24,000 nt of DNA from Geminicoccaceae bacterium (GTDB lineage Bacteria; Pseudomonadota; Alphaproteobacteria; Geminicoccales; Geminicoccaceae): assembly GCA_050331695.1 (NCBI GenBank), contig JBHJGP010000025.1:95967-119966 (forward strand), written 5' to 3'. The notes below the pieces were generated by a model that was not told where the DNA came from, made no database searches, and was given only the letters and a program-made list of their open reading frames with translations. Position numbers and translations under genes: made by a program. Below are positions 3,457-17,867 of the stretch, piece after piece (position 1 is the stretch's first letter; every line of letters starts with the position of its first letter).

Positions 3457-5511
3457 TCAAGCAATCGAAAAACTTTGTCTCGCGGCGGCCTTCTTTAGAA
3501 ATGGACTTGTTGGCGCAAGGCTGCCCTCTTCGACGAACGCCTCGAGTTTCGCCACCACCTGGTCCAGGCCGGTCGCTTCGCCCCAATACATCAGTCCTCC
3601 CCGCCATCGGGGAAAGCCATAGCCATGGATTTCAACGAGATCGATTTCGAACGGACGGGTCGCGATGCCCTCGTCCAGGATCCGGGCGCCGGTGTCGATC
3701 ATCGGAAACAAAAGCCGCTCACGGATCTCCTCGCCGGAAAAGGACCGGGGCCGGGTTCCGGCCTTGATCCGTTCCGCGGCGATGACGCGCTCCACCTCCG
3801 GCGAGGGCGCCGGCCGACCATCATCAGACGAAAAATCGTACCAACCGCGGCCCGCTTTCCGGCCGAGGCGGTTCAGGGAAACCAGGCGATCGGCAATCGG
3901 TGCGAACGGCTCTTCACCGCGCTTTCTCGCAGCCTTGCGCTGGTAGTGGGCGATGTCGAGGCCTGCCAGGTCCTGAACCTGGAAAGGTCCCATAGGCATG
4001 CCGAATTCACGCATTGCCGCGTCCACATCCCAGGGCGAGGCGCCTTGGATAACCACGCGCTCGGCCTGGGTTCGGTAGGTCTTGAGAATGCGGTTGCCGA
4101 TGAACCCGTCGCAGACGCCCGCCGCGACACCGATCTTTCCCAATCTTTTTGCCAGCGCAAAGGCTGCGGCCAGAACATCGGGGCGGCACGCATCGGTGCG
4201 AACGATCTCGATCAGTTTCATCACGTTGGCTGGGCTGAAGAAATGAAGACCGATCACCCGTTCAGGCGCTCTAGTCACCTCGGCCAGTTTATTGGGGTCC
4301 AGGTAGGATGTGTTGGTCGCGAGGATGGTGTGGGGCGAACAAGCGGTGTCGAGCCGTTGGAACACGGCGCGCTTGACCCCGAGATCCTCGAATACGGCTT
4401 CGATCACCAAATCGGCGGAACCCAGCTGGCCATAGTCCGTGGTGGGCGTTAACGCTGCCATCCGCGCTTGGCGTTCGTCTTCGTCCAACCGGCCCCTGGC
4501 GACGCTGCGATCGTAGATTTTACGAATATGGGCGAGGCCCTTCTCGAGGCTCGCCTCGTCCCGCTCCACCAGTGTCACCGGCAGGCCCGCGTCCTGAAGC
4601 GCTACCGTGATGCCGCTCCCCATGGTCCCGCCGCCGACAACACCAACCGTTTCGATCGATCGGGGCTGGACGCCCTCGAGCTCTGCAAGGTCGGCGACCG
4701 TTATCTCGGCCGTAAAAACGTGATGCAGCGCCTTCGCCTGGTCCGAGCTTCGTAACTCAAGATAGGTTCGACGCGCGCGGACGATCGCGGCTTCGAAGCT
4801 TTCTTCAGCCGCTTTTTCGAGGCAATCGAGCGCGCCCAGCGGCGCTTGCTGGCCCCAGGCCTTTCGGGCAATCCTGCGCCGTTGCTCGGTCCAGAAGTCC
4901 GCTGACGGCGAGGGTTGGGGGGGCCTTTCCCGTAATGGCCGCAAGTTTGCAGCCCTGACGGCCAAACCGATGGCGGCCTCTTCCAAATCGTCGGCGGCGA
5001 GCTCGTCGACGAGCCCCACGGACAAGGCACGGGCAGCATCGATCGGACGGCCGTCCGCGATCATGTCCACGGCCGCATCGAGAGGGACCAGTCGTGGCAG
5101 TCTCGCGGTGCCGCCGCCGGCGGGGATGAGCCCCAGACCCACTTCCGGAAAGCTGAGTTGGGCGCCTTCCGCAGCCACCCGAACCCGGCAGGCAAGCGCC
5201 AGATAAAGCCCGTGGCCTTCGGCTCTCCCATGGACGGCGGCGATCCAGGGTTTTTTGGCCCGTTCCACCTGTTCGAGAAGATCGGCCAGGTCCGGCGTCT
5301 CGACAGCTTCGCCTGTCAGTTCCGCGTCGGTCGAGGCGATGAAGGTGGCACCGGAACCGCAGAGGACGACGGCGATGAGCTTTTCGTTCTTGTCCAGGGT
5401 TTCAACGAGTTGTCGAAGATCGCGGCGCGCCGAGTGGTCCAGGGCATTGACGGGAGGGTTGTCGACCCTGACCACCGCGATCTTTCCCTTGATCTCGCAC
5501 GCTACCGCCAC
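3457..5511 (-). CDS. Fused enoyl-CoA hydratase/isomerase-like (crotonase) + 3-hydroxyacyl-CoA dehydrogenase, FadN/FadB-like; candidate PaaH (and possibly PaaF) function
   Basis: 684 aa with a GTG start at 5511 preceded by GGGGAGAAGG. N-terminal crotonase fold (VDNPPVNAL..., FPEVGLGLIPAGGGT). Central Rossmann motif VGVVGGGTMGSGI and 3-hydroxyacyl-CoA dehydrogenase C-terminal domains. Divergently transcribed from paaG. Confidence 0.85.
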   Translation of the reverse strand: MAVACEIKGKIAVVRVDNPPVNALDHSARRDLRQLVETLDKNEKLIAVVLCGSGATFIASTDAELTGEAVETPDLADLLEQVERAKKPWIAAVHGRAEGHGLYLALACRVRVAAEGAQLSFPEVGLGLIPAGGGTARLPRLVPLDAAVDMIADGRPIDAARALSVGLVDELAADDLEEAAIGLAVRAANLRPLRERPPQPSPSADFWTEQRRRIARKAWGQQAPLGALDCLEKAAEESFEAAIVRARRTYLELRSSDQAKALHHVFTAEITVADLAELEGVQPRSIETVGVVGGGTMGSGITVALQDAGLPVTLVERDEASLEKGLAHIRKIYDRSVARGRLDEDERQARMAALTPTTDYGQLGSADLVIEAVFEDLGVKRAVFQRLDTACSPHTILATNTSYLDPNKLAEVTRAPERVIGLHFFSPANVMKLIEIVRTDACRPDVLAAAFALAKRLGKIGVAAGVCDGFIGNRILKTYRTQAERVVIQGASPWDVDAAMREFGMPMGPFQVQDLAGLDIAHYQRKAARKRGEEPFAPIADRLVSLNRLGRKAGRGWYDFSSDDGRPAPSPEVERVIAAERIKAGTRPRSFSGEEIRERLLFPMIDTGARILDEGIATRPFEIDLVEIHGYGFPRWRGGLMYWGEATGLDQVVAKLEAFVEEGSLAPTSPFLKKAAARQSFSIA

Positions 5512-5513
5512 GG

Positions 5514-5523
5514 CCTTCTCCCC
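5514..5523 (-). promoter_or_regulatory. Shine-Dalgarno-containing 10-mer GGGGAGAAGG for the fused dehydrogenase gene (left arm of an inverted repeat)
   Basis: The plus strand reads CCTTCTCCCC. On the minus strand this is GGGGAGAAGG-CC-GTG(5511). Confidence 0.6.
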
Positions 5524-5598
5524 ATAGCCTGTTTCTGGTTACCTGCAGAAGAAGGCGGGGCCAAGCCATGCCTCGGTCAAGGCGCGGACTGACGGGAC

Positions 5599-5608
5599 GG
5601 GGAGAAGG
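5599..5608 (+). promoter_or_regulatory. Shine-Dalgarno-containing 10-mer GGGGAGAAGG for paaG (right arm of an inverted repeat)
   Basis: GGGGAGAAGG-TG-ATG(5611). Same 10-mer and same spacing as the divergent gene. Confidence 0.6.
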
Positions 5609-5610
5609 TG

Positions 5611-6405
5611 ATGAGCGACGAGCAGACGGTTCTGGCGAAGAGCGAAGGGGGTGTCCTACGTCTGACCTTAAACCGACCCGAGAAGCTGAACGCCTTCACG
5701 GATGCCATGCATCGCGAGCTCTTCGCCAGGCTGACGGCCGCCCGGGAAACGGACCAGATTAGGTCAATCCTGTTGACCGGCGCCGGCCGCGCCTTCTGTG
5801 CCGGTCAGGATCTGGACGAGCGAGACCCCGCAAGGATGGAGGGACCACTGGACCTGGGTGAGACCCTCGATACCTTCTACAACCCGCTGGTCCGCCTGAT
5901 CCGGGCGATCGAGAAGCCGGTCGTCTGTGCGGTCAATGGCGTCGCGGCCGGAGCCGGGGCCAACATAGCGCTGGCCTGCGACATCGTCCTGGCGGCGAGG
6001 TCGGCAAAATTCATCGAGGCTTTCGCCAAAATCGGCCTGGTGCCCGATTGCGGTGGCAGTTGGTCGATCACCAGGCTGATCGGCGAGGCCCGAGCCAAGG
6101 CTCTCTGCCTTACCGCCATGCCGCTGGACGCGGAAACGGCCGCGTCCTGGGGGCTGATCTGGAAAGCGGTGCCGGATGAGCGGCTGACGGACGAGGCCAT
6201 GGAACTGGCCAGTGCACTCGCCGCGGGGCCGACCTATGGTTTGGGGCTCACCAAGCGAGCCGTTCAGGAGGCCGCGACCAACTCGCTCGACGCGCAACTG
6301 GATCTGGAACGGGACCTGCAGCGCCTGGCCGGCCGTTCGGAGGACTATGCCGAGGGCGTCGCGGCGTTTCTCGGTAAGCGCAAGCCAAGCTTCAAAGGCC
6401 GTTAA
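5611..6405 (+). CDS. paaG: 1,2-epoxyphenylacetyl-CoA isomerase PaaG (crotonase family)
   Basis: Near full-length resemblance to remembered E. coli PaaG (FYNPLVR..., CAVNGVAAGAGA, ARSAKF..AF.K.GL.PDCGG.W, QLDLERD.QRLAGRS.DY.EGV.AFL.KR.P.F.G). ATG 5611 lies 6 nt after the GGAG core. The track start at 5608 is an in-frame GTG one codon upstream. Confidence 0.9.
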   Translation: MSDEQTVLAKSEGGVLRLTLNRPEKLNAFTDAMHRELFARLTAARETDQIRSILLTGAGRAFCAGQDLDERDPARMEGPLDLGETLDTFYNPLVRLIRAIEKPVVCAVNGVAAGAGANIALACDIVLAARSAKFIEAFAKIGLVPDCGGSWSITRLIGEARAKALCLTAMPLDAETAASWGLIWKAVPDERLTDEAMELASALAAGPTYGLGLTKRAVQEAATNSLDAQLDLERDLQRLAGRSEDYAEGVAAFLGKRKPSFKGR

Positions 6406-6483
6406 GTGGTCAGTGCCGCCGGTGTTGGCGGATTGGGTGCGTTACCCGCGCGAGATGCCGCCAGGTGATTGGCGTTAACCCGG

Positions 6484-7104
6484 TTATTCCTGAGCGGTCT
6501 TCTTCAGCCGATCCATGAACAAAGGATCGAAGGCCGGCGCCTCGATCCGGCGCCGGTCCGGTTCGACTTTCCTCAAAGGTTCGGCCGGTTTCAGTTTGGC
6601 ATGAGCTTCCTGGGCCAGGCGCTGATAGACGCCGGTGCCACGGGATTTCCAATCGATTTCATCGTCACTCAGCTCACGGATCACCCGCGCTGGCGCGCCG
6701 ACCACCATGCTCCTGGGCGGTATCCGTGCGCCCGCCTTCACGAAGGCCAGAGCGGCGACGATGCTATTGGCGCCGATCACCGCGTCGTCCATGACCACGG
6801 CATTCATGCCGACAAGCGCGTTTTGGCCGATGCGGCAGCCATGAAGGACGGCGCCGTGGCCGATATGGCCATGCTCTTCGATCACGGCTTCCAGATTGGG
6901 AAAGCTGTGAACGACACAGGTTTCCTGCACATTGGAACCTGCCTCGATCCGGATACGGCCGAAATCACCCCGAAGGCAGGCACCGGGGCCGATGTAGCAG
7001 CCGGCGCCGACGATGACGTCGCCAATGAGGATCGCCGCCGGATGAACGAAGGCGGAGGGATCCACCACCGGCACGATGTCGTCATAGGCGTAGATCTGAG
7101 CCAT
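6484..7104 (-). CDS. paaY: PaaY, hexapeptide-repeat (gamma-carbonic-anhydrase-like) protein of the phenylacetate pathway
   Basis: 206 aa. The N-terminus (IYAYDDIVPVVDPSAFVHPAAILIGDVIVGAGCYIGPGACLRGDFGRI) is a typical left-handed beta-helix PaaY/CaiE sequence. The start overlaps the paaZ stop by one base (TGATG, 7102-7106). Confidence 0.85.
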   Translation of the reverse strand: MAQIYAYDDIVPVVDPSAFVHPAAILIGDVIVGAGCYIGPGACLRGDFGRIRIEAGSNVQETCVVHSFPNLEAVIEEHGHIGHGAVLHGCRIGQNALVGMNAVVMDDAVIGANSIVAALAFVKAGARIPPRSMVVGAPARVIRELSDDEIDWKSRGTGVYQRLAQEAHAKLKPAEPLRKVEPDRRRIEAPAFDPLFMDRLKKTAQE

Positions 7105-9155
7105 CAGTGCCGGCTCTTGGCGACCAGCGTCAGGACATCGTACTGGGCGACCAAGGCGGCGTCTTGATTGGTCACCGCGCAGTCCCAGCGGACCTCGCCG
7201 TAAGCCTCGGTTTCCCGGGGATTGATGTCCTTGCAGGTGAGGGTCACCTGAAGCGCGTCATCCGGGTTAACGGGCGTGAGAAAGCGCAGATTGTCGGCGC
7301 CGTAGTTGGCAAGCACTGGCCCCGGATCGGGGTCGACGAACAGGCCAGCGGCAAACGACAGAACGAGATAGCCGTGGGCGACCCTGCCATCGAAGAACGG
7401 ATTGGCCTTGGCGGCCTGCTCATCCATGTGGGCGTAGAAGGTATCGCCTGTGAAGGCGGCGAAATGCTCGATGTCCTCCAGGGTCACGGTCCTCGCGGCG
7501 GTGACCAGCTGATCGCCGATCTCCAGCTCCTGAAGCGATTTACGAAAAGGATGCACACCGTCGGTTTGGGCCGCGGCACCTGATATCCAGCGACCGGCCA
7601 CCTGCGTCAGCATGGTCGGTGAACCCTGGACCGCGCTCCGCTGCATGAAATGCATAACGCTCCGCATACCGCCCAATTCCTCGCCGCCGCCGGCGCGGCC
7701 GGGCCCGCCATGAACCAGGACCGGGAGCGGCGAGCCGTGGCCGGTGGAGGATCTGGCGGTTTCGCAATTGCCGATCAGAACGCGGCCATGCCAGGGGGCG
7801 AGACCGGCTACCGCATCCCGCGCGAAATTTTCGTCATGGGTGAAGATCGAGGACACCAGACTGCCGCCGCCGGCCCGCGCCAGGGATATGGCACCGTCCA
7901 CGCCGTCATAAGCCATCACCGTGGCGACCGGTCCGAACGCTTCGATCTCGTGAACCTTCGAGCCGCTTTCGGACTTGTCGCAATAGAGCAGGACCGGCGC
8001 CTGGAATGCGCCTCGCTCGCCATCGCCTGACACGAGCGAAACCGTGTCCAGGCTGCCGGCAACGATCTCCGCATCGCCCGCCAACTCGCGAATACGGTCT
8101 CGAACCTCATCTCGCTGGGCGACGCTGGCCAGGGGGCCCATCCGGACTTGGTCGTCCCGGGGAAGACCAATCGCTACCTTGTCGAGACGGGCCCTCAGCG
8201 CCTGGACCACCGCGTCCACATGGCCCCTAGGCACCATGGCCCGGCGGATGGCAGTGCATTTCTGTCCGGCCTTTGCGGTCATTTCCCGACCGATCTCGCG
8301 AACGAACAGATTGAATTCCTCGGTGCCCGGCAGAGCGTCCGGCCCCAGAATGGCGCAATTGAGACTGTCGGCCTCCATGGTGAAGCGGACGGCCTGATCG
8401 ATCACGCGTGGATGTGCCTTGAGCTTTCGCCCCGTCGAAGCGGAGCCTGTGAAGGTGACGACATCCTGGCAGGTCAGGTGGTCCATCAGGTCACCGACGG
8501 AGCCGGCCACCAACTGCAAAGCCCCTTTCGGCAAGACCTCCATGTCGATGATCCGCCGGACCAAGAGTTCGGCGAGATAGGCGGTCTGGCGCGCGGGCTT
8601 GATGATGGCCGGCATGCCGGCGAGCCAGGTCGGCGCCAGTTTTTCGAGCATGCCCCAGCAGGGAAAGTTGAAGGCATTGATGTGCACCGCGACACCTTCG
8701 AGCGGGCTCATCAGATGGACGCCGCTGAAACTCCCATCCTTGGACAAGGGCTCCAGGCTCCCGTCCATAAGGAGCCGGGTGTTCGGCAGTTCACGGCGAC
8801 CCTTCGAGGCATAGGACAAGAGCGTGCTGATGCCGCCCTCGATGTCGATCCAGCTATCGGACCGGGTGGCCCCGGTGGCGCTCGAGAGCTCGTAGAATTC
8901 CTCCTTCAGCTCAAGGAGCCCCAGACCGATGGTCTTCATCATCAAGGCCCGCTGGTGGAAGGTCATGGCCCGGAGTGCTGGGCCACCTCGCCGTCGGCCG
9001 TGGTCGAGCGCCGCCGCCATATCGAGCCCGTCGGCATCGACGACGGCCACCGGCTCACCGGTCGCGGCGTCGTTGAGCAGGATGCCGGCGCCCTTGCCTC
9101 TGAGCCATTCGCCCCCGAGATAGCTTTCGAGACGGCGGGGTTCACAGGCGGTCAT
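7104..9155 (-). CDS. paaZ: Bifunctional PaaZ: oxepin-CoA hydrolase (MaoC/hot-dog) + 3-oxo-5,6-dehydrosuberyl-CoA semialdehyde dehydrogenase
   Basis: 683 aa. N-terminal aldehyde dehydrogenase domain with catalytic-Cys motif GQKCTAIRR. C-terminal MaoC hydratase domain with FTGDTFYAHMD (Asp/His pair). Length and domain order match PaaZ. Confidence 0.9.
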   Translation of the reverse strand: MTACEPRRLESYLGGEWLRGKGAGILLNDAATGEPVAVVDADGLDMAAALDHGRRRGGPALRAMTFHQRALMMKTIGLGLLELKEEFYELSSATGATRSDSWIDIEGGISTLLSYASKGRRELPNTRLLMDGSLEPLSKDGSFSGVHLMSPLEGVAVHINAFNFPCWGMLEKLAPTWLAGMPAIIKPARQTAYLAELLVRRIIDMEVLPKGALQLVAGSVGDLMDHLTCQDVVTFTGSASTGRKLKAHPRVIDQAVRFTMEADSLNCAILGPDALPGTEEFNLFVREIGREMTAKAGQKCTAIRRAMVPRGHVDAVVQALRARLDKVAIGLPRDDQVRMGPLASVAQRDEVRDRIRELAGDAEIVAGSLDTVSLVSGDGERGAFQAPVLLYCDKSESGSKVHEIEAFGPVATVMAYDGVDGAISLARAGGGSLVSSIFTHDENFARDAVAGLAPWHGRVLIGNCETARSSTGHGSPLPVLVHGGPGRAGGGEELGGMRSVMHFMQRSAVQGSPTMLTQVAGRWISGAAAQTDGVHPFRKSLQELEIGDQLVTAARTVTLEDIEHFAAFTGDTFYAHMDEQAAKANPFFDGRVAHGYLVLSFAAGLFVDPDPGPVLANYGADNLRFLTPVNPDDALQVTLTCKDINPRETEAYGEVRWDCAVTNQDAALVAQYDVLTLVAKSRH

Positions 9156-9172
9156 GGTCTAGATCCATGGGC

Positions 9173-9682
9173 TCAGATGCATTTGAAATAGTCGAAGGGC
9201 TCAAGGCAGGAGAGGCACCGGTAGCTCGCCTTGCACGGGGTCGAGCCGAACTGGCTGATCCGTTCGGTCGCGCAGGAGCCGCAGCGGGGGCAGGCGATCG
9301 GTGGCTTGGTCAGGGAGCCGAAGCCAGTCGCGGCATTACCTTTGACCGGCGGGACGATGCCGTAGGCCAGAAGTTTTTCCCGGCCCTCATCGCTGATCCA
9401 GTCGGTGGTCCAGGCGGGCGAAAGCTGACGCTCGAGAACCAGTTTCCCGATACCTTTGTTGCGCAGATGGTTCTCGATCTCGATATTGATGACCGCCGTC
9501 GCCGGACAGCCTGAATAAGTGGGCGTGATCAATAGCTTCAGCGTGTCGCCGTCCCAACCCACATGGCGGATGACGCCCAGATCAACCAACGATATGCAAG
9601 GGATTTCCGGGTCCGGGATTTCGTGGAGCCACGCCCAGATTTCTGTCAATGCAGGACGGCTCGTGGTTTGGGAGCCGGTCAC
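9173..9682 (-). CDS. paaD: Phenylacetyl-CoA 1,2-epoxidase subunit PaaD (PaaJ in alternative nomenclature)
   Basis: 169 aa. Has IPDPEIPCISLVDLGVIR (DUF59-like) plus a C-terminal Cys cluster CPRCGS...CLSC typical of PaaD. 4-nt overlap with paaC. Confidence 0.85.
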   Translation of the reverse strand: MTGSQTTSRPALTEIWAWLHEIPDPEIPCISLVDLGVIRHVGWDGDTLKLLITPTYSGCPATAVINIEIENHLRNKGIGKLVLERQLSPAWTTDWISDEGREKLLAYGIVPPVKGNAATGFGSLTKPPIACPRCGSCATERISQFGSTPCKASYRCLSCLEPFDYFKCI

Positions 9683-10446
9683 CAGACGGCTCCCGGATGG
9701 TTGCGCTGCAGCACCTGCATCTCGGCGAGCAGATAACCCAGATGCTCGGTGTGAACGCCCTGGCGGCCGCCTTTCTGAATATGACCGTCTTCCGGGTGTT
9801 CCAGCATGCCGGCGGTAAAGGCTCGGGCCACATGCTCATCCCACCGGTCCCGGAGAGATGATGGTTTTGGCGCCGTACCCCGGTCGGCCAAAGCTTGATC
9901 GATCTCATCATCCAGGAACATCTCGCCCGTGTAGGGCCAGAGCAGGTCGACCGCGGTCTGGAGCCGGCGGTTGCTCTCGTCGGTGCCGTCTCCCAGACGG
10001 ACCACGCGGTCGCCGCTCCGCTCCAAATGATACGCCGCTTCCTTACGCGCCTTTTCAGCGATTTCGGCGACCCGGCTTTCGCTGGAGCGCTCCAGTTCCC
10101 CCAGCAGACCAAAATGCCAGGCGTCGAACAGAAATTGCCGCATCAATGTTTGGCCGAAATCGCCGTTCGGCTGCTCGACCAGGAGCAGATTGTGGAACTC
10201 ACGGGAATCCCGCAGATAGGCCAGATCGTCGGCGGTTCGCCCGACCCCTTCCACCTCGCCGGCGAGGGCGAGCCAGAGTTGGGTCTGGCCGATCAGATCG
10301 AGGGCCGTGTTGGCGAGCGCGATGTCCTCTTCCAACACAGGCCCGCGGCCGCACCATTCCGAGACGCGGTGGCCGAGAACAAGGGTGGTATCGCCCATAC
10401 GGGTAAGAAATTGGAACAGCGCCGGGGCGTCTGATCCCGCCATCAC
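9679..10446 (-). CDS. paaC: Phenylacetyl-CoA 1,2-epoxidase structural subunit PaaC
   Basis: 255 aa ferritin-like helical protein (LGDTTLVLGHRVSEWCG.GP.LEEDIALAN.ALDLIGQ). Located between paaB and paaD with 4-nt overlaps on both sides. Confidence 0.85.
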   Translation of the reverse strand: MMAGSDAPALFQFLTRMGDTTLVLGHRVSEWCGRGPVLEEDIALANTALDLIGQTQLWLALAGEVEGVGRTADDLAYLRDSREFHNLLLVEQPNGDFGQTLMRQFLFDAWHFGLLGELERSSESRVAEIAEKARKEAAYHLERSGDRVVRLGDGTDESNRRLQTAVDLLWPYTGEMFLDDEIDQALADRGTAPKPSSLRDRWDEHVARAFTAGMLEHPEDGHIQKGGRQGVHTEHLGYLLAEMQVLQRNHPGAVW

Positions 10447-10727
10447 ATGTGGCCCACCTCGTCGGGCACATCGAAAAAGGTGGGATGACGGTAGACCTTG
10501 CTGTCAGCGGGATCGAACATCGGTCCCTTTTCCGCCGGCGAACTCGCCGTGATCTCGCTCGATCTCACGACCCAGATGCTGACGCCTTCCTTTCGTCGGG
10601 TGTAGACGTCGCGGGCGTTCCTGATCGCCATCTCCGCGTCCGGCGCATGTAGGCTGCCGACGTGCCGGTGGTTCAAGCCCTGCTGACCGCGAACGAAAAT
10701 CTCCCAAAGGGGCCACTCAGTAGACAT
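10443..10727 (-). CDS. paaB: Phenylacetyl-CoA 1,2-epoxidase subunit PaaB
   Basis: 94 aa with the WPLWEIFVR...HVGSLHAPD signature of PaaB. Starts 15 nt after the paaA stop. Confidence 0.9.
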   Translation of the reverse strand: MSTEWPLWEIFVRGQQGLNHRHVGSLHAPDAEMAIRNARDVYTRRKEGVSIWVVRSSEITASSPAEKGPMFDPADSKVYRHPTFFDVPDEVGHM

Positions 10728-10742
10728 CGCACGCCACGCCGG

Positions 10743-11735
10743 TCATTCGGCCGCGACCGGGGTAGCCGCGTGCTTCTCGGCGTGGGCGCTCAGACCCTCG
10801 CGAACCCAGGCGCCATCCTCCCACGCCTGGCGCCGGGCCGTGAGGCGCTCGCGGTTGCAGGGCCCGTTACCCTTGATCACCTCGAAGAATTCTTTCCAGT
10901 CGGGCTCGCCGAAATCGTACGCGTTTCGCGCTTCGTTCCATTTGAGCTCAGGGTCCGGGATGGAAAGGCCCAGATAATCGGCTTGGGGAACGGTCTGGTC
11001 GACGAATTTTTGTCTGAGCTCGTCATTGGAATTGAGCTTGATTTTCCAGGCCATCGACTGGGCGGAATGAATGGAATCGCCGTCCGCCGGTCCGAACATC
11101 ATCAGTGACGGCCACCACCAGCGGTTCAACGCGTCCTGGGCCATCGCTTTCTGCGCGGCCGTGCCCTTGCAAAGCTTGACCATGATGTCGAAGCCCTGGC
11201 GTTGGTGAAAGCTCTCCTCCTTGCAGATCCGGATCATCGCCCGGCTGTAGGGACCATAGGAACAGCGCTGTAGCGGCACCTGATTCATAATCGCCGCGCC
11301 GTCGACCAGCCAGCCTATGGCGCCGATATCGGCCCAGGTCAGGGTCGGATAGTTGAAGATCGACGAGTACTTGGCCTTGCCACTGTGGAGCTGCTCATAC
11401 ATCTCGTCGCGGCTGATGCCGAGGGTCTCGGCGGCGCAGTAGAGGTAGAGCCCGTGGCCGGCTTCGTCCTGAACCTTGGCGAGGAGGATCGCTTTGCGCT
11501 CCAGGTTCGGCGCCCGAGTGATCCAATTGCCTTCGGGCAACTGGCCGACAATTTCCGAGTGGGCGTGCTGGCTGATCTGGCGGATCAAGGTTTTGCGGTA
11601 GCCCTCGGGCATCCATTCCTTGGGCTCGATCTTTTCGCCTCGATCGATACGCTCCTGGAATGCGCGCTCCTCAGGCGTCATCTCGTCGAGTTTCTTGACG
11701 CCCCTACCGTCCGTCTTGACCATTTGCGCGTACAT
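10743..11735 (-). CDS. paaA: Phenylacetyl-CoA 1,2-epoxidase catalytic (di-iron) subunit PaaA
   Basis: [11 protein letters not shown] and DEAGHG di-iron ligand regions, giving 330 aa from ATG 11735. That ATG is preceded by GGGAG (11741-11745). The longer track ORF (to 11819) would overlap the thiolase by 58 nt and adds an Arg/His-rich non-homologous extension. Confidence 0.9.
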
Positions 11736-11761
11736 CACAGGCTCCCGATCGTCGCCAGTAT

Positions 11762-12967
11762 TCAGATCCGCTCGACAATGATGGCGATGCCCTGGCCGAC
11801 GCCGATGCACATTATGCAAAGGGCATGGCGACCACCGCTTCGGCGCAGTTGATGGGCCGCCGTCACGACGAGCCTAGCCCCGCTCATGCCGAGCGGATGA
11901 CCGATGGCGATCGCGCCGCCATTGGGATTAACGTAGTCTGCGTCGTCCGGAACGCCAAGATCACGCAAGACGGCGAGCGCCTGGGCGGCGAACGCCTCGT
12001 TAAGCTCGATCACGTCCATCTGCTCGAGACTGAGCCCCGTTTTCGCCAGAACCCTGCGGGCCGCGGGCACCGGGCCGACGCCCATGATCCGGGGCTCGAC
12101 CCCGGCTGTCGCCATCGCCAGGACCCGCGCGAGCGGCGTCAACCCATGGGTCTCCGCAGCCTGCCCGCTCGCCAGCAACAAAGCAGCGGCGCCGTCATTG
12201 ACGCCCGACGCATTACCCGCCGTCACACTTCCATCCCGGCCGTTGATACCGGGCAAGCCCGAAAGCTTATTGAGCGTTGTGCCGGGACGCGGATGCTCGT
12301 CCCGGTCGATCAGCAAGTCTTCGTCTTTGCGCTGCTTAACTGAAACGGGCACGATCTCATCGGCGAACAAACCCGCTTCTTGAGCTGCCGCCCACCGGGC
12401 CTGGCTGCGGGCCGCGAAGGCATCCTGATCGGCGCGGCTCACCTGAAAGGCTTCCGCCACATTGTCGGCCGTCTCGGGCATGGTGTCGGTGCCATAGGCC
12501 GCCTCGAAGGCTGGGTTTATGAACCTCCAGCCGATCGTCGTGTCGTAGACCGCCGTGGACCTGGCGAACGCCATTTCGCTCTTCGGCATGACGAACGGCG
12601 CCCGGGACATGCTCTCGACCCCGCCGGCGATCACCAGATCCAGCTCGCCCGTTTTGATGCCGCGGGCGGCGCTGCCCACGGCGTCCATGCCGGAGCCGCA
12701 AAGCCGATTGATGGTCGAGCCCGGCACCTCGATCGGCAGGCCGGCTAGCAGCGCCGCAAAGCGAGCCACATTGCGATTATCCTCGCCCGCCTGATTGGCG
12801 CATCCGTAGAGAACGTCGTCGAGGCGGGTCCAGTCGACCTCGCCGTTACGTTCGGCCAGTGCTTTGATCGGCACGGCCGCCAGATCGTCGGCCCGCACGC
12901 TCGACAACACGCCGCCATATCGACCGATCGGCGTTCGCACAGCGTCGCAGATAAAGGCTTCACCCAT
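11762..12967 (-). CDS. paaJ: 3-oxoadipyl-CoA / 3-oxo-5,6-dehydrosuberyl-CoA thiolase (PaaJ/PcaF)
   Basis: Thiolase motifs [11 protein letters not shown] (nucleophile Cys), [18 protein letters not shown] and CIGVGQG. Strong resemblance to remembered PcaF (FICDA.RTPIGR.GG...[14 protein letters not shown]). ATG 12967 gives the canonical ~401-aa length. In-frame GTG 12994 and ATG 12991 (GAGG 9-12 nt upstream) are alternative starts. Confidence 0.88.
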
Positions 12968-13048
12968 GGCAGCGCGCTTCGAAGACGACATCACTCATCA
13001 TGACCTCAACGGTCGCATTGCAGGAACACAATTATACACGAGTTTCAC

Positions 13049-14593
13049 TCAGGGCGCGGAGACAAGCGAGCGCTCGCCGACCAGGTCGGTGCGTGTTTTT
13101 TCAAAGTTTTCCGGGTCGGAGACGACGCGCGGGACCTTATGCTGGCCGCCCAGCTTTCCCCGGCGGCGCATCCACTCGGCAAACCGTCCGGGCGGTAGGA
13201 GCTCCACTTGCGGACGGTCGAGGCCGGTTCCTCCATGGCGGTGGGCGGCATAGTCATCGTTGAGCCGGCCCAAGGTCTCATCGATGCTCGAACTGAGCGC
13301 ATCGACGATCCCGGCGTCGGCCGGCCTCGCCGTTTCGATCAGATAAACGTGGCGGCCAAGCTCGCCCTGCTCATCGGGCAGATGCCCTCCGACCATGAAA
13401 TCTGTGATCTCGAGACCGGCTTCGGTGGCGGCCGCGGCGACGGCCTGCTCGAGTTCCGTTTCGATCACATGCTCGCCGAACATCGAGAGCGTGAAGGTGA
13501 CGCGGCCCGTGACCAACAGCCGGGGCGGTTTGACGGAGACGAACGATACCGTGTCGCCGAGCACGTAGCTCCAAAGACCGGCCGCCGTGGTGACGACGAT
13601 CGCGTAGTTGATCCCGGGCTCGATATTGCCCAGCCAGTGGCGGGTCGGCGCATCGGTGCCCAGCTCTTCGACCGGCACGAACTCGAAGAAGATCCGGTCG
13701 TCGAAGCAGAGGAGGAGCCCATCCTCAGGCGTGGCATCGGCGAACGCGATGAACCCCTCGCTGGCGGGATAGACCTCGCGAGTGCTAGCCCCCGTCTTCT
13801 CGAGGAACGGGCGAAATCGGCCCTCGTAGGGTGCCCAGTTGACGCCGCCATGGACCAAGAGCTCGAGGTTGCGCAGAGGCGACACGTCGTAGCGCTGCTC
13901 GAGCCGGTCGATCAGGATCAAGAGCCAGCTCGGAATGCCGCCCAGGACCGTGATGTTTTGACCGGCCATGGCGTCTACCAGGCGGTTCAGTTTCTCGTCC
14001 CAGTCATCGAGCAATGCGATATCGAGGGGCGGAAAGGCGAGGGGGCGCAGAATGGAGGGAGCCTGAGCGGTGATGACGCCCGAAAGATCGCCGCTTTTCA
14101 CCCCAGGTGCTTGCTCCACCAGGGAGGTCGAGCCGCCGAGCATGAAGATCTTGCCGCTGAGAGACCGGCTCTCGGGATGCGCCGTCACATGAGCCCCTAG
14201 CACATGATAGCCCGTGCGGCGCTGGTGGCGAAGCATCGCCCTGGTCACCGGAATGTATTTACTGCGGCCCGTGGTCGTGCCTGAACTCACCGCAAAATAA
14301 GGGATGCGTCCGGGCCAGGTGGCATCGATGATGATCGGAAACGAATTCTTCCAGTAGGTCTCCCAGAAATCGTTGTAGTCGCGAAGTGGAACGCTTTTTT
14401 GATAGGCCTCAACCGAGTCAATCCGGTCAAATCGATGCTGGCGGCCGAAACGGGTGCTCGCTGCCCGCTTGACCAAAGACAACAGGTGCCGCCGCTGAAA
14501 CAAGGATGCTTCGGCTCGGCGCAGGCCTTTGATCCGCCGGTCCGCCCATAACCGGAAGGGGGGCGTGAGATCGATCAACTGTCCGGGCGCCAT
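13049..14593 (-). CDS. Bacterial GH3-family protein (GH3 auxin-responsive-promoter domain; acyl-adenylate-forming amido-synthetase-like enzyme)
   Basis: 514 aa with no signal peptide. All three GH3/ANL nucleotide motifs are present: SSGTTTGRSKYIP (14258-14287 encodes SSGTTTGRSK), YPASEG and YVLGD. The bacterial GH3 C-terminal signature GKLGGQHKVPRV is also present. The start overlaps the 3' end of the upstream acylase gene by 19 nt. Confidence 0.85.
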   Translation of the reverse strand: MAPGQLIDLTPPFRLWADRRIKGLRRAEASLFQRRHLLSLVKRAASTRFGRQHRFDRIDSVEAYQKSVPLRDYNDFWETYWKNSFPIIIDATWPGRIPYFAVSSGTTTGRSKYIPVTRAMLRHQRRTGYHVLGAHVTAHPESRSLSGKIFMLGGSTSLVEQAPGVKSGDLSGVITAQAPSILRPLAFPPLDIALLDDWDEKLNRLVDAMAGQNITVLGGIPSWLLILIDRLEQRYDVSPLRNLELLVHGGVNWAPYEGRFRPFLEKTGASTREVYPASEGFIAFADATPEDGLLLCFDDRIFFEFVPVEELGTDAPTRHWLGNIEPGINYAIVVTTAAGLWSYVLGDTVSFVSVKPPRLLVTGRVTFTLSMFGEHVIETELEQAVAAAATEAGLEITDFMVGGHLPDEQGELGRHVYLIETARPADAGIVDALSSSIDETLGRLNDDYAAHRHGGTGLDRPQVELLPPGRFAEWMRRRGKLGGQHKVPRVVSDPENFEKTRTDLVGERSLVSAP

Positions 14594-16848
14594 TCCTGCT
14601 TGTGGGGAAACGAACGGGCAATGGTTTCAGGCTGCAACGGCAAGTGCACATATGCGCCGTCGCGCCAGAGTTCGACCTGGTCACTGAACGTCGTGCTGCC
14701 AAGCCAACCGTCCTGGCCGCCGAACAAAACAAACCAGTTGGCATCATCTTCGGCCATGTCTGAGATGTGCCGCGCCTGGGCGCCGAAGCTGGCGTTGTGG
14801 CGTTCCCGGACGAGATTGTGCGAGCGTTTCATCAGGGTCTCTCGCGAACCTGCGGTGGGCAGATCGTTAAGCTGGAAGAAGCGTCCCACCACCGGAACAT
14901 TGCCCAAGATGTGTTGGACTTTCACCCGGTGCATCTCGCCCCAGTTGGCATGGTTCGCGGCGTCGCTTGCGGCCTCATCGACCGCCTCCTGAAGAAGTTG
15001 TTTGCGCTCCTCGTCGGCGATGCCGCTTAGGTCATCCACCAGATGAAGGATCAAGCTGCCCCATGCACCATCCACCCTCGACACCACCTTCTCCGGCCCA
15101 CGCCCGTATAGATTACGGGTGATATGGTAGAGGACAGTTTCGAAGACCACAGCGCCCTGGGAATCTTCACCATAACCTCCATCCCACTCGGCAAGTTGAC
15201 CGACGCTGGGGTGATTGATCCCGGCGCTCTCGAGACATTCCACGAGTTTGTTAGCCAAGCCCCGCGCTGATGCCGAGCTGACGTCTGTTTGAATGGATTG
15301 CAGAGCGGCCACGTCGATTTTGCCGTTGTCTCTGACCAGCGTGGCCATGCGATCGATCCGGTCACTCGGGCTGAAGAAATAACCGGCCGGGCGATTGATA
15401 TAGTCGGGCCGGTCGTTCGCTGACGCAATGAAGCCGCTTTCCGGATCGACCAGCCAAGCCATGTCCAAAGCGGTATCGACACCGTTCCACAGCGCACCGT
15501 TAGCCGGCGGTTCGACCACCAGATCACTGTCGAGGCTGTGCGAGCGTTTGGGCAGCCACGCCGCCATCAGCTTGGCGATACGCCCATCACGGTCGACGAC
15601 GAGCATGTTTTGCGCTGACACGCCATAGGATCGGAAGGCCTCGCGAAACGCTTCGACATTTTCCGCTCGCATCGCCCGCAAAAAGGCGGTGATCTCATCG
15701 CTGGTCCCATGACCAACCCATTTCAGCGCCAAGGTTTCTCCGGGACGGGCCTGGACGAAGCGGCTGTCGGAGATCACCGGACCGAAAGGCGACAGGCGGA
15801 CGTCGACCCGGGCGTCGCGCCAAAGCCGGGTCTTGATTTTCTCTTCTCGGACCTCGATCTCGCTGGTCGGTAGGGCGTCGACATCCACCAGATCGCTGCT
15901 GCTGGCGCGGGCATTGGTGCCGCCCCAGGCGATGGTCTGGCTGCGGCCGAGGGCGATGAAGGGAAGGCCCGGAATCATCATACCTACCGCATGGTAGGAG
16001 GGCGACTTCACGCCTGCGAGGAGCCAGAGATTGGGCAGGTTCAGGCCCAGATGCGGATCGTTGGCGATCAGCGGCGCGCCTTTCTTCGAACGGCTCGGGC
16101 CGATGACGAGCGAATTGCTGCCCGATCGGCTGAGACCGCCGAGCAGGTTCTCGAGCACCGCTTGTTCGGTGGGCTGGTCGTCGCTCTCCGGGTCCGGCAG
16201 GTCGTCGATCGGCGGTATCCCGTGGCCGGCCACCCGCAGCCTTTGCCAGGTCTGGGGCCAGTCCGGGGCAAGCCTCGCTTCCAGCGCGCCAAATGCGGCG
16301 AGCCATGTCACATCCGTGCCGGCGAGGCGACCGACCGTCACCAGATCCTCCGGCGTCCAGACCTCGTCCCGGAGACCGAGAAGACCGAACTCCGGCGGTT
16401 TGGCCGTCTGCGCCTGGTGCCAGTTCAAGCCAGCGACAAAGGCATCGACGAACAGACGGGTATCATCCGGCCAGGCGGCAACGACGTCGGCCGAACTCCG
16501 ACCGAACCCCAACATCCGGAGACTTCGGTCGATATCATGGGCGAATGGGCCGGCGATCTCGCTCAGACGGCCCTGGCTGATCTGTTTCAAAAGACGCATT
16601 TGGCCGGCGCGCAGATGGTGATGAACCACGCCGAGCGCAAACGCCAGATCCCGGTCGGTCTGGGCGTGGATGAACGGCACGTGATGCTCGTTCCAATGGA
16701 CCTGAACCGGTTTCTCGAGCGGCATTTGCGTTTGGGGCAACGCGTCGAGGCGCATTTCGATCGATCGTTTGGCTGGCCAAAGGGCAGCACAGGCTGACAA
16801 CAACATAACCCCTACCAAGCAACTGACGGTACGCAGGAACGGAAACAT
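14575..16848 (-). CDS. Penicillin acylase (penicillin amidase/AHL-acylase) family Ntn-hydrolase, predicted lipoprotein
   Basis: 757 aa from ATG 16848. The N-terminus MFPFLRTVSCLVGVMLLSAC carries a lipobox L-S-A-C (Cys codon 16789-16791). An acidic spacer is followed by G|SNSLVIGP...ANDPHL, the autoprocessing site with the N-terminal nucleophile Ser of the beta chain (Ser codon 16117-16119). The track ORF start at 16947 is a GTG that adds 33 non-signal-like residues. Confidence 0.85.
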   Translation of the reverse strand: MFPFLRTVSCLVGVMLLSACAALWPAKRSIEMRLDALPQTQMPLEKPVQVHWNEHHVPFIHAQTDRDLAFALGVVHHHLRAGQMRLLKQISQGRLSEIAGPFAHDIDRSLRMLGFGRSSADVVAAWPDDTRLFVDAFVAGLNWHQAQTAKPPEFGLLGLRDEVWTPEDLVTVGRLAGTDVTWLAAFGALEARLAPDWPQTWQRLRVAGHGIPPIDDLPDPESDDQPTEQAVLENLLGGLSRSGSNSLVIGPSRSKKGAPLIANDPHLGLNLPNLWLLAGVKSPSYHAVGMMIPGLPFIALGRSQTIAWGGTNARASSSDLVDVDALPTSEIEVREEKIKTRLWRDARVDVRLSPFGPVISDSRFVQARPGETLALKWVGHGTSDEITAFLRAMRAENVEAFREAFRSYGVSAQNMLVVDRDGRIAKLMAAWLPKRSHSLDSDLVVEPPANGALWNGVDTALDMAWLVDPESGFIASANDRPDYINRPAGYFFSPSDRIDRMATLVRDNGKIDVAALQSIQTDVSSASARGLANKLVECLESAGINHPSVGQLAEWDGGYGEDSQGAVVFETVLYHITRNLYGRGPEKVVSRVDGAWGSLILHLVDDLSGIADEERKQLLQEAVDEAASDAANHANWGEMHRVKVQHILGNVPVVGRFFQLNDLPTAGSRETLMKRSHNLVRERHNASFGAQARHISDMAEDDANWFVLFGGQDGWLGSTTFSDQVELWRDGAYVHLPLQPETIARSFPHKQEWRPDS

Positions 16849-16866
16849 AGCTTTACGGCACCGTTT
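16846..16866. repeat. Copy 1 of repeated motif CATAGC-N3-ACGGCACCGTTT (core ACGG-NN-CCGT is palindromic); overlaps the acylase start codon
   Basis: Read directly. CATAGC at 16846-16851 (CAT is the reverse complement of the acylase ATG). ACGGCACCGTTT at 16855-16866. Confidence 0.5.
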
Positions 16867-16964
16867 GAGTATCGATCGCGCAGGTGACCTCGCCTCAAAC
16901 CCCCGGGAAGAAAAGAGGGTCCCGCTGACGCAACAGCCGTTTCCCACCCAATTCGCCGCAAAGT

Positions 16965-16983
16965 CATAGCGACGGTGCCGTTT
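16965..16983. repeat. Copy 2 of repeated motif CATAGC-N1-ACGGTGCCGTTT
   Basis: Read directly. CATAGC at 16965-16970 and ACGGTGCCGTTT at 16972-16983. The 10-bp core is the exact reverse complement of the copy-1 core, with identical flanks. Confidence 0.5.
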
Positions 16984-16989
16984 CGCGGG

Positions 16990-17018
16990 CTTTCACAAAG
17001 TCGTCATCGATCGGTCAT
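16990..17018 (+). promoter_or_regulatory. Candidate Pho box (PhoB binding site) upstream of phnC
   Basis: Three 7-mers in 11-bp register: CTTTCAC (16990), TCGTCAT (17001) and CGGTCAT (17012). They match the CTGTCAT Pho-box half-site at 5/7, 5/7 and 6/7, and the last one ends 57 nt before the phnC ATG (58 nt end to start). Confidence 0.45.
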
Positions 17019-17075
17019 CGAACCGCCTCCGACAACTTCTACGAGCATTCGCCAGAGCCGCAACACGGTGATTGC

Positions 17076-17867
17076 ATGCTAGAGGTCGATAGCCTGACCA
17101 AGAGGTTCGGCGCAACCCAGGCGGTAGACGGCATTTCGATCCGCGTCGAACCGGGCCAGTTCGTTGGCATCATTGGCAGGTCTGGCGCCGGCAAATCGAC
17201 GTTTCTTCGCCTGATCAACAGACTGGTCGAGCCAACCAGCGGTCGGGTTTTGGCCGATGGCCGTGAGATCACCGCGCTTCGCGGGCGCGCTCTCAGGCTG
17301 TGGCGAGCCCAATGCGCAATGATCTTCCAGCAGTTCAATCTGGTCGAGCGGCTCGACGTTCTGACCAATGTTCTGATCGGCCGGATCGCTCATCAGGGTC
17401 TTCTAGCGACAATCGGACGACATTTCAGTGACGCGGAGCGCACCCTGGCGATCCAGGCGCTGGACCGACTCGATCTGGCGCCTCAGGCCCTGCAGCGGGC
17501 CGGCACGCTCTCCGGCGGTCAACAGCAGCGCGTCGCGATCGCCAAGGCATTGGTCCAGAACCCGAAATTCCTTCTGGCGGACGAACCGATCGCGTCGCTC
17601 GATCCGGCAAACGCGGCCAAGGTGATGGACGCGCTCGCCACGATCAATCGCCAGGACGGGATTACGGTCCTGGTCAACCTTCACACACTCGACACCGCCC
17701 GCGCCTACTGCCGGCGGATCGTCGCGATGCACAGTGGCCGTGTCGTTTTCGACGGTGAACCGTCCTTGCTCACCGACCAACGGGTTCGCGAGATTTACGG
17801 TGCCGAGGGGTTGGTGACGGGCGCCTTAAATCTTGATCCGCCGTCGGCCGTCGCCACTGCAGCCTGA
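17076..17867 (+). CDS. phnC: Phosphonate/phosphate ABC transporter ATP-binding protein PhnC (PhoC-like)
   Basis: 263 aa. Has Walker [10 protein letters not shown], signature LSGGQQQRV and Walker B LLADEP. PhnC-specific N-terminal context (LTKRFG...[38 protein letters not shown]). Confidence 0.9.

Follow-up and report, generated by a model that had tools for sequence, protein, structure and literature searches.

A stretch of 24,000 nt from a Geminicoccaceae bacterium (GenBank assembly GCA_050331695.1, contig JBHJGP010000025.1, positions 95,967 to 119,966; hereafter the window) hosts on the minus strand, just ahead of a cluster of phenylacetate (paa) genes, a gene for a lipoprotein acylase of the penicillin amidase family (14575..16848), followed by a gene for a GH3-family acyl-acid amido synthetase (13049..14593). 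The order acylase-then-GH3 is conserved across many alphaproteobacterial families, while the surroundings of the two genes change. Judging from their sequences, both enzymes are intact, and they are predicted to reside in opposite compartments. The pair plausibly represents an old, autonomous bicistronic module for N-acyl-amino-acid (aminolipid-type) metabolism, and not a part of the phenylacetate pathway, to which an earlier note on this DNA had assigned it; this is the reading we favour, at a likelihood that we place slightly short of one half. The conserved pairing has not been described before, as far as a literature search shows: no published account was found, and the words acylase and amidase occur neither in the paper reporting OlsH, the nearest characterised relative of this GH3, nor in a 2026 review of ornithine lipids.

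Conservation of the acylase-GH3 order

Homologous loci were collected as the 80 best matches to the window proteins, and represent the alphaproteobacterial clade, not bacterial GH3s as a whole. The scan with the GH3 alignment covered one genome per GTDB species and gave 80 loci, 71 of which carry enough upstream sequence; the scan with the acylase alignment covered metagenome contigs, and 63 loci were assessed. Genes were called in these loci by tblastn and by a simple picker of open reading frames (ORFs) weighted by GC3, the G+C content at third codon positions. Of the 71 species-representative loci, 43 show an acylase homologue immediately 5' of GH3 in the same orientation, and another 3 have it at a different position within the locus. 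In turn, 37 of the 63 metagenome loci have GH3 immediately 3' of the acylase, and another 8 have it at some other place in the locus. The adjacency rate is about 60%, whichever gene is searched from. The pair has been identified in Geminicoccaceae, Fodinicurvata, Aquibaculum, Acetobacteraceae, Micropepsaceae, Dongiaceae, Defluviicoccus and other groups. Paired acylases are scattered over the entire subfamily in a rough neighbour-joining tree of 132 sequences, which also shows patches of lone genes. Carriers available in culture include Indioceanicola profundi, Fodinicurvata, Aquibaculum, Craurococcus roseus and Siccirubricoccus deserti, so that a gene pair which is real, widespread and unexplained can be tested directly. 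In I. profundi SCSIO 08040 the pair is located on NZ_CP030127.1; the strain of C. roseus is JCM 9933.

The two genes are often tightly joined. In the window the end of the acylase gene and the start of GH3 overlap by 19 nt (14575..14593, minus strand; shared stretch ATGGCGCCCGGACAGTTGA) if GH3 is read from its ATG, and an alternative in-frame TTG at 14578 would give a classic 4-nt overlap (TTGA). Among 69 homologous pairs the 4-nt overlap is the commonest arrangement (21 pairs); 3 pairs overlap by 1 nt, and 11 are separated by 0-20 nt. Overlapping codons, or a gap of 20 nt at most, thus characterize 35 of the 69 pairs. The earlier note had viewed the two genes as a functionally coupled unit, in which the amide hydrolase is exported and the ATP-dependent amide synthetase stays in the cytoplasm. 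Conserved and often translationally coupled pairing supports this view, the compartments being predicted.

The surroundings of the pair are variable. Of 75 pair loci, 48 have a convergent gene after GH3, and no Pfam family recurs among 25 downstream genes lying on the same strand. A conserved third gene beside the pair was sought by clustering the ORFs of 81 loci and by Pfam analysis of the same 25 genes, and was discarded since no family recurs; flanking gene clusters differ from locus to locus. Neither flank clustering nor the downstream Pfam scan revealed a dedicated transporter conserved with the pair, which fits a membrane-permeant acyl substrate. Genes paaA, paaB, paaC, paaD and paaZ were found beside the pair in none of about 160 related loci (L001-L166). 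Matches labelled Paa in these loci correspond to unrelated generic thiolases and to weak diiron paralogues; one PaaJ-like thiolase, 6.3 kb away from the pair in L043, was set aside because it adjoins amine oxidase and DUF1365 genes, and not paa genes. Unrelated genes follow the pair in L002 and L014 (acylases 59-60% identical to that of the window), the closest paired loci in which the downstream sequence can be read. The adjacency to paa genes is best seen as a lineage-specific juxtaposition, encountered only here among the loci compared. The survey of gene neighbourhoods suggested in the earlier note gave therefore a twofold answer, as synteny between acylase and GH3 is conserved, and synteny with the paa genes is not. 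A function deduced from the operon context of one genome may mislead, and the link of this pair to auxin, or to phenylacetic acid (PAA), rests on adjacency in this lineage only.

GH3 genes lacking an acylase partner occur as well. In Minwuia and Kordiimonadales (L010, L013, L047) they are arranged as tandem GH3 duplicates. A second set (L020, L027, L030, L038, L066, L071) resides mostly in Bdellovibrionota. In loci of the latter type GH3 is followed by conserved genes which, by sequence reading, look like those for a membrane protein, a Fur-type regulator and a fatty-acid desaturase.

The two enzymes

The GH3 protein measures 514 aa (Pfam, NCBIfam and AlphaFold2 evidence). Its N-terminus is not hydrophobic and carries no signal peptide, and the protein is predicted to be cytoplasmic. 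Pfam PF03321, PF23571 and PF23572 (GH3, GH3_M and GH3_C) all match it, scoring 79, 50.1 and 64.7 bits against a cut-off of 23.6. The three nucleotide-binding motifs typical of the family (SSGTT..K, Y.(A/S)SE and Y..GD) are found on the minus strand as SSGTTTGRSKYIP (motif 1, residues 103-115, 14249..14287), YPASEG (motif 2, residues 275-280, 13754..13771) and YVLGDTV (motif 3, residues 343-349, 13547..13567). Residues Y275, P276, A277, S278 and E279 are invariant in 25 sequences, and G346, D347, T348 and V349 are invariant as well. More generally, GH3 retains every residue which is invariant among 24 relatives from non-paa contexts. The AlphaFold2 model (pLDDT 89.9) displays the two-domain GH3 fold. 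GH3 is thus plausibly an intact member of the GH3 adenylating family, and the earlier statements that it has no signal peptide and keeps all three adenylation motifs hold.

Two sets of characterised proteins are relevant to GH3. When the model was searched with Foldseek, the top 27 matches were plant GH3 structures, most of them at TM-scores of 0.73-0.78 and 17-19% identity; PaaK1/2 are among the matches that come next, at a rank well below. Plant enzymes such as JAR1, GH3.5, GH3.6 and OsGH3-8 share with this GH3 the fold (TM-score about 0.75) and the adenylation motifs, but identity is limited to the 17-19% just mentioned, and sequence similarity is found mainly in the C-terminal half. The comparison does not point to auxin or PAA as substrate. 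The hypothesis that GH3 substitutes for a missing PaaK was rejected, since the family persists where paa neighbours are absent, and its fold is closer to that of plant GH3s than to that of PaaK. The sole NCBIfam model matching GH3 is OlsH (NF052613, lyso-ornithine lipid synthetase; 553.5 bits, E 4e-166), and its sequence most resembles OlsH, not an auxin-conjugating enzyme. OlsH of Singulisphaera acidiphila (Sinac_1599), characterised in 2025, is a fatty-acid:ornithine ligase (PMC12493201). The enzyme joins a free fatty acid and ornithine in the presence of ATP and Mg2+, with no need for coenzyme A or acyl carrier protein, and the serine of motif 1 is essential, as the S115A mutant is inactive (PMC12493201). 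This GH3 and OlsH have in common the family, the domain set and the three nucleotide-binding motifs, inclusive of the essential serine. In planctomycetes OlsH resides in an operon with the O-acyltransferase OlsI (and OlsG), whereas the GH3 of the window is paired with an acylase. Given that OlsH has been characterised, and that GH3 narrowly misses the threshold of its model, the premise of the earlier note, by which no function is established for GH3 proteins of bacteria, is out of date.

The acylase ORF extends on the minus strand over 14575..16947 if read from a GTG; starting from the ATG at 16848 it encodes a precursor of 757 aa, the N-terminus of which reads MFPFLRTVSCLVGVMLLSAC. Alignments with homologues begin at this ATG. 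The protein matches Pfam PF01804 above cut-off over its full length (477.6 bits, model positions 1-674 of 675), and is assigned also by AlphaFold2 and Foldseek to the penicillin amidase family of N-terminal nucleophile (Ntn) hydrolases. The precursor plausibly consists of a signal peptide (residues 1-19), an alpha part, a spacer (about 210-243) and a beta part starting at Ser244. In the AlphaFold2 model (pLDDT 87.7, pTM 0.90) the spacer is disordered at 210-225, just before Ser244. The lipobox L-S-A-C (residues 17-20, 16789..16800) marks the acylase as a predicted lipoprotein, and the cysteine is kept in most of 20 aligned homologues. The autoprocessing site G-SNS spans residues 243-246 (16111..16122): homologue alignment points to Ser244 as the N-terminal nucleophile of the beta chain, alignments of 20 and of 26 homologues show no variation at G243, S244 and N245, and Ser244 aligns with residue 1 of the beta chain of solved acylases. 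Lipobox and intact G-SNS site had both been pointed out in the earlier note; homologues conserve the two features. An identical protein (P0121, 100% identity), derived from a Geminicoccaceae metagenome-assembled genome, is annotated in NCBI as 726 aa long, with translation starting at Met32. The deposited start codon is probably wrong, because it drops the signal peptide and the lipobox (window 16755-16848, minus strand) that homologues conserve.

Within the Ntn family the acylase seems to stand apart from characterised subfamilies. The best Foldseek match is D-succinylase (TM-score 0.78), and by both sequence and fold the nearest solved structures are this enzyme and the cephalosporin/glutaryl acylases, with 22-24% identity. 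Both D-succinylase of Cupriavidus sp. P4-10-C (7EA4/7EBY) and the class III cephalosporin (glutaryl-7-ACA) acylase (4HSR/4HST) have the serine nucleophile and the precursor layout in common with the acylase of the window, but their substrate preference is not transferable. Penicillin G acylases (PGAs) are less close than these enzymes (15-18% identity, phmmer E 4e-17 to 9e-4). In an ungapped BLASTP alignment with residues 1-80 of 1ai4_B, the beta chain of the Escherichia coli PGA, leucine residues of the acylase lie opposite beta-Phe24 and beta-Phe57, which we take to be the walls of the phenylacetyl pocket. Close similarity to PGAs and an aromatic acyl pocket, expected of a PGA in the strict sense, are therefore both lacking. 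Of the solved relatives, PvdQ and MacQ lie farthest away (E about 1e-12, 14-16% identity), and the NCBIfam PvdQ model NF051460 scores 24.3 bits, against a cut-off of 950. On sequence grounds, the protein belongs to the penicillin-amidase Ntn family, and is neither a PGA, nor a PvdQ, nor a member of another characterised subfamily.

Possible roles of the pair

According to the reading we favour, the cytoplasmic GH3 would ligate to an amino acid a fatty acid, or some other hydrophobic acid able to cross the membrane unaided, and the lipoprotein acylase, facing the periplasm, would cleave N-acyl amides of that same chemical class. Two variants can be envisaged. The acylase might free the fatty acid required by an OlsH-type ligase, or might turn over in the envelope the product of the ligase itself. 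Free fatty acids, which OlsH-type ligases require, are scarce in cells (PMC12493201), and the inactivity of OlsH in living E. coli was ascribed by the authors to the missing free fatty acid. The location of the pair ahead of paaJ makes read-through into the paa genes possible, but such read-through is not required by the module.

A bolder proposal, to which we assign roughly half the likelihood of the general reading, is that bacterial aminolipids, either N-acyl amino acids or molecules of the lyso-ornithine-lipid type, have in the acylase their first dedicated amidohydrolase. Together with the OlsH-like ligase, it might set up a make-and-break cycle across the inner membrane, which would supply the ligase with free fatty acids or remodel phosphorus-free membrane lipids, possibly under phosphate limitation. 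OlsH-type GH3 enzymes have been recognised only in 2025, and their products have been identified within planctomycetes. The words degradation, turnover, catabolism and recycling are all absent from the 2026 review on ornithine lipids, which hence describes no enzyme degrading these lipids. The occurrence of a predicted periplasmic amide hydrolase beside an alphaproteobacterial OlsH-like gene, in about 60% of the loci, provides a testable lead to aminolipid turnover, or to the fatty acid source of the ligase.

Context partly fits a role in lipid metabolism. In the loci of the closest GH3 relatives (L001 and L165, 59-60% identity) the pair heads a lipid gene cluster. Genes found after the pair have as best matches OlsC (379 bits, cut-off 450), LpxL-type secondary acyltransferases and OlsA (197 bits, cut-off 300), and by these matches the cluster is an ornithine-lipid-type gene set. 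The same loci host a second GH3 gene, 44% identical to that of the window and divergent from the pair (L001 3012-7055, L165 3086-7081). It is followed by genes for an AroA-like carboxyvinyltransferase and a PhyH/halogenase-like Fe(II) oxygenase, and forms a separate GH3 cluster. In L014, a paired locus with an acylase 59% identical to that of the window, an alpha/beta-hydrolase gene (11599-12405, plus strand) comes right after GH3; its product matches no specific curated family, and alpha/beta-hydrolase is the fold of the O-acyltransferase OlsI.

A connection with phosphate has been searched for as well. Ornithine-lipid synthesis is induced by phosphate limitation in many bacteria (PMC12971839). 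The acylases closest to that of the window (L162, L163 and L164, 64-66% identity) stand alone, and phosphate-scavenging genes adjoin such lone acylases, as a phosphonate-type ATP-binding cassette transporter in L163, phytase and PhoD in L164. L002 is also among the loci of the window clade in which the acylase lies beside phosphate-scavenging genes, and the acylase gene of the window is itself divergent from phnCDEE. This proximity may reflect either lineage synteny or shared regulation. Control of acylase genes by the Pho regulon was rejected: the direct repeat GTCAY-N6-GTCAY, scored with one mismatch at most, occurs upstream of 11 of 116 genes, against 7.25±2.8 in random windows of the same loci, so there is no enrichment. 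The phosphate link of the acylase clade must be regarded as a lead, not as a finding.

Several observations weigh against a module for aminolipid metabolism. The score of GH3 is lower than the equivalog cut-off of the OlsH model (553.5 vs 620 bits); alphaproteobacterial relatives range between 515 and 628 bits on the same model, and one of them, the acylase-paired P0030, exceeds the cut-off. Partners of the OlsI/OlsG kind are missing in the window, since neither an alpha/beta-hydrolase nor a methyltransferase gene adjoins the pair. The authors who characterised OlsH expect that homologues found outside planctomycetes use other substrates. The solved relatives nearest to the acylase act on succinyl or glutaryl amides, not on fatty acyl amides. 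The ornithine-lipid cluster accompanies the pair in one lineage only (L001, L165), and as evidence from context is therefore no broader than the adjacency to paa genes seen in the window. Finally, no terminator-like site is found between GH3 and paaJ on the minus strand, and co-transcription with the paa genes is thus possible.

Among other explanations, the one surviving best is that the acylase acts on exogenous N-acyl-homoserine lactones (AHLs), or on other foreign N-acyl amides, as in quorum quenching or scavenging, and that GH3 captures the freed fatty acid as an N-acyl amino acid. PvdQ and the AHL acylase MacQ are Ntn acylases which strip fatty acyl chains off amides in the periplasm; the acylase shares their fold and is itself a predicted periplasmic lipoprotein, and OlsH-type ligases depend on free fatty acids, of which cells contain little (PMC12493201). 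Still, PvdQ and MacQ are the solved relatives farthest from it, the PvdQ model is missed by a wide margin, and no neighbour family is recurrent, so that no quorum-sensing gene is consistently linked to the pair, though luxI and luxR were not specifically searched. We consider this explanation unlikely.

Somewhat less probable still is the hypothesis put forward in the earlier note, by which the pair serves the paa operon as a module devoted to phenylacetyl amides, where the periplasmic acylase frees PAA from conjugates (PAA-Asp/Glu, phenylacetylglutamine, beta-lactams) and GH3 handles PAA inside the cell. The pair lies on the strand of paaJ, 54-81 nt away, with no terminator-like site in between; the window has no paaK, and PaaK1/2 are among the Foldseek matches of the GH3 model that come after plant GH3s. 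There is also a precedent, and an acylase scavenging PAA amides is not a new idea: the E. coli PGA is viewed in this way, and is repressed by PaaX (PMC9493321), a documented regulatory tie between an acylase and paa genes. The E. coli enzyme resembles the acylase of the window in superfamily and predicted periplasmic location, but differs because it has no GH3 partner, exhibits Phe24 and Phe57 in place of the leucines, and is 16-18% identical to it. The distribution of the pair does not support the hypothesis. None of about 160 related loci has it beside paaA/B/C/D/Z, genes following GH3 are mostly convergent, and those found downstream in L002 and L014 are unrelated. The acylase is remote from PGAs, GH3 is OlsH-like, and the gap between GH3 and paaJ features a perfect -10 hexamer. 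Moreover, both proteins keep every family-invariant residue, and show accordingly no sign of a changed function. Sequence alone leaves room for phenylacetyl substrates in this one lineage.

A third possibility, rather improbable, is a maturation process like that of pyoverdine. PvdQ reverses an acylation made earlier in the cytoplasm, and GH3 might similarly add a fatty-acyl handle to an amino-acid-derived metabolite, which the acylase would strip off after export. Opposite compartments and opposite chemistry of the two enzymes, co-translation of the genes and the PvdQ precedent in the same superfamily suit this scheme, but biosynthetic genes, such as those for a nonribosomal peptide synthetase or an exporter, are not conserved beside the pair. 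That the two genes are functionally unrelated, and have remained neighbours by descent alone, is very unlikely: the adjacent partner is missing in about 40% of the loci and the closest acylases are unpaired, but adjacency persists while all flanking genes turn over, the pairing rate is similar from both search directions, and start/stop overlaps are frequent.

Neighbouring genes and intergenic signals

Downstream of GH3 lie on the same strand paaJ, paaA, paaB, paaC, paaD, paaZ and paaY, each confirmed by curated models; gene coordinates, the 19-nt overlap, the size of the gap and this gene order all agree with the earlier note. The gap between GH3 and paaJ (12995..13048, minus strand) measures 54 nt if paaJ starts at the GTG at 12994, and 81 nt if it starts at the ATG at 12967, where alignments with the PcaF/PaaJ models begin. 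A perfect TATAAT is found in it at 13031-13036 (minus strand), in a genome with a G+C content of about 62%. The hexamer, spotted by eye and lacking a recognisable -35 partner, may belong to a separate promoter for the paa genes. In a scan of 11500-17300, promoter and terminator counts did not depart from chance level. A terminator-like hairpin followed by a T-run lies on the plus strand at 13075-13101, inside the 3' end of GH3, where no plus-strand gene ends.

At the opposite side of the pair, the acylase gene and phnC are separated by a divergent intergenic region (16849..17075). It includes a Pho-box-like direct repeat with an 11-bp period, TTCAC-N6-GTCAT-N6-GTCAT (16992-17018, plus strand), which faces phnC and lies 58 nt upstream of its start. 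This is the single exact instance of GTCAY-N6-GTCAY in the window.

The paa cluster (3457-12994) has no paaE, and paaD is directly followed by paaZ; paaI, paaX and paaR are, like paaK, missing in the window. A fused FadB/FadJ-like enoyl-CoA hydratase/3-hydroxyacyl-CoA dehydrogenase (3457-5511) seems to fill the role of PaaH/PaaF, and a PaaG-like hydratase is encoded on the opposite strand (5608-6405). Unrelated to the pair are genes located at 25-2908 on the plus strand, encoding a T2SSE-family ATPase and two T2SSF-family membrane proteins, similar to those of Tad/type IV pilus systems.

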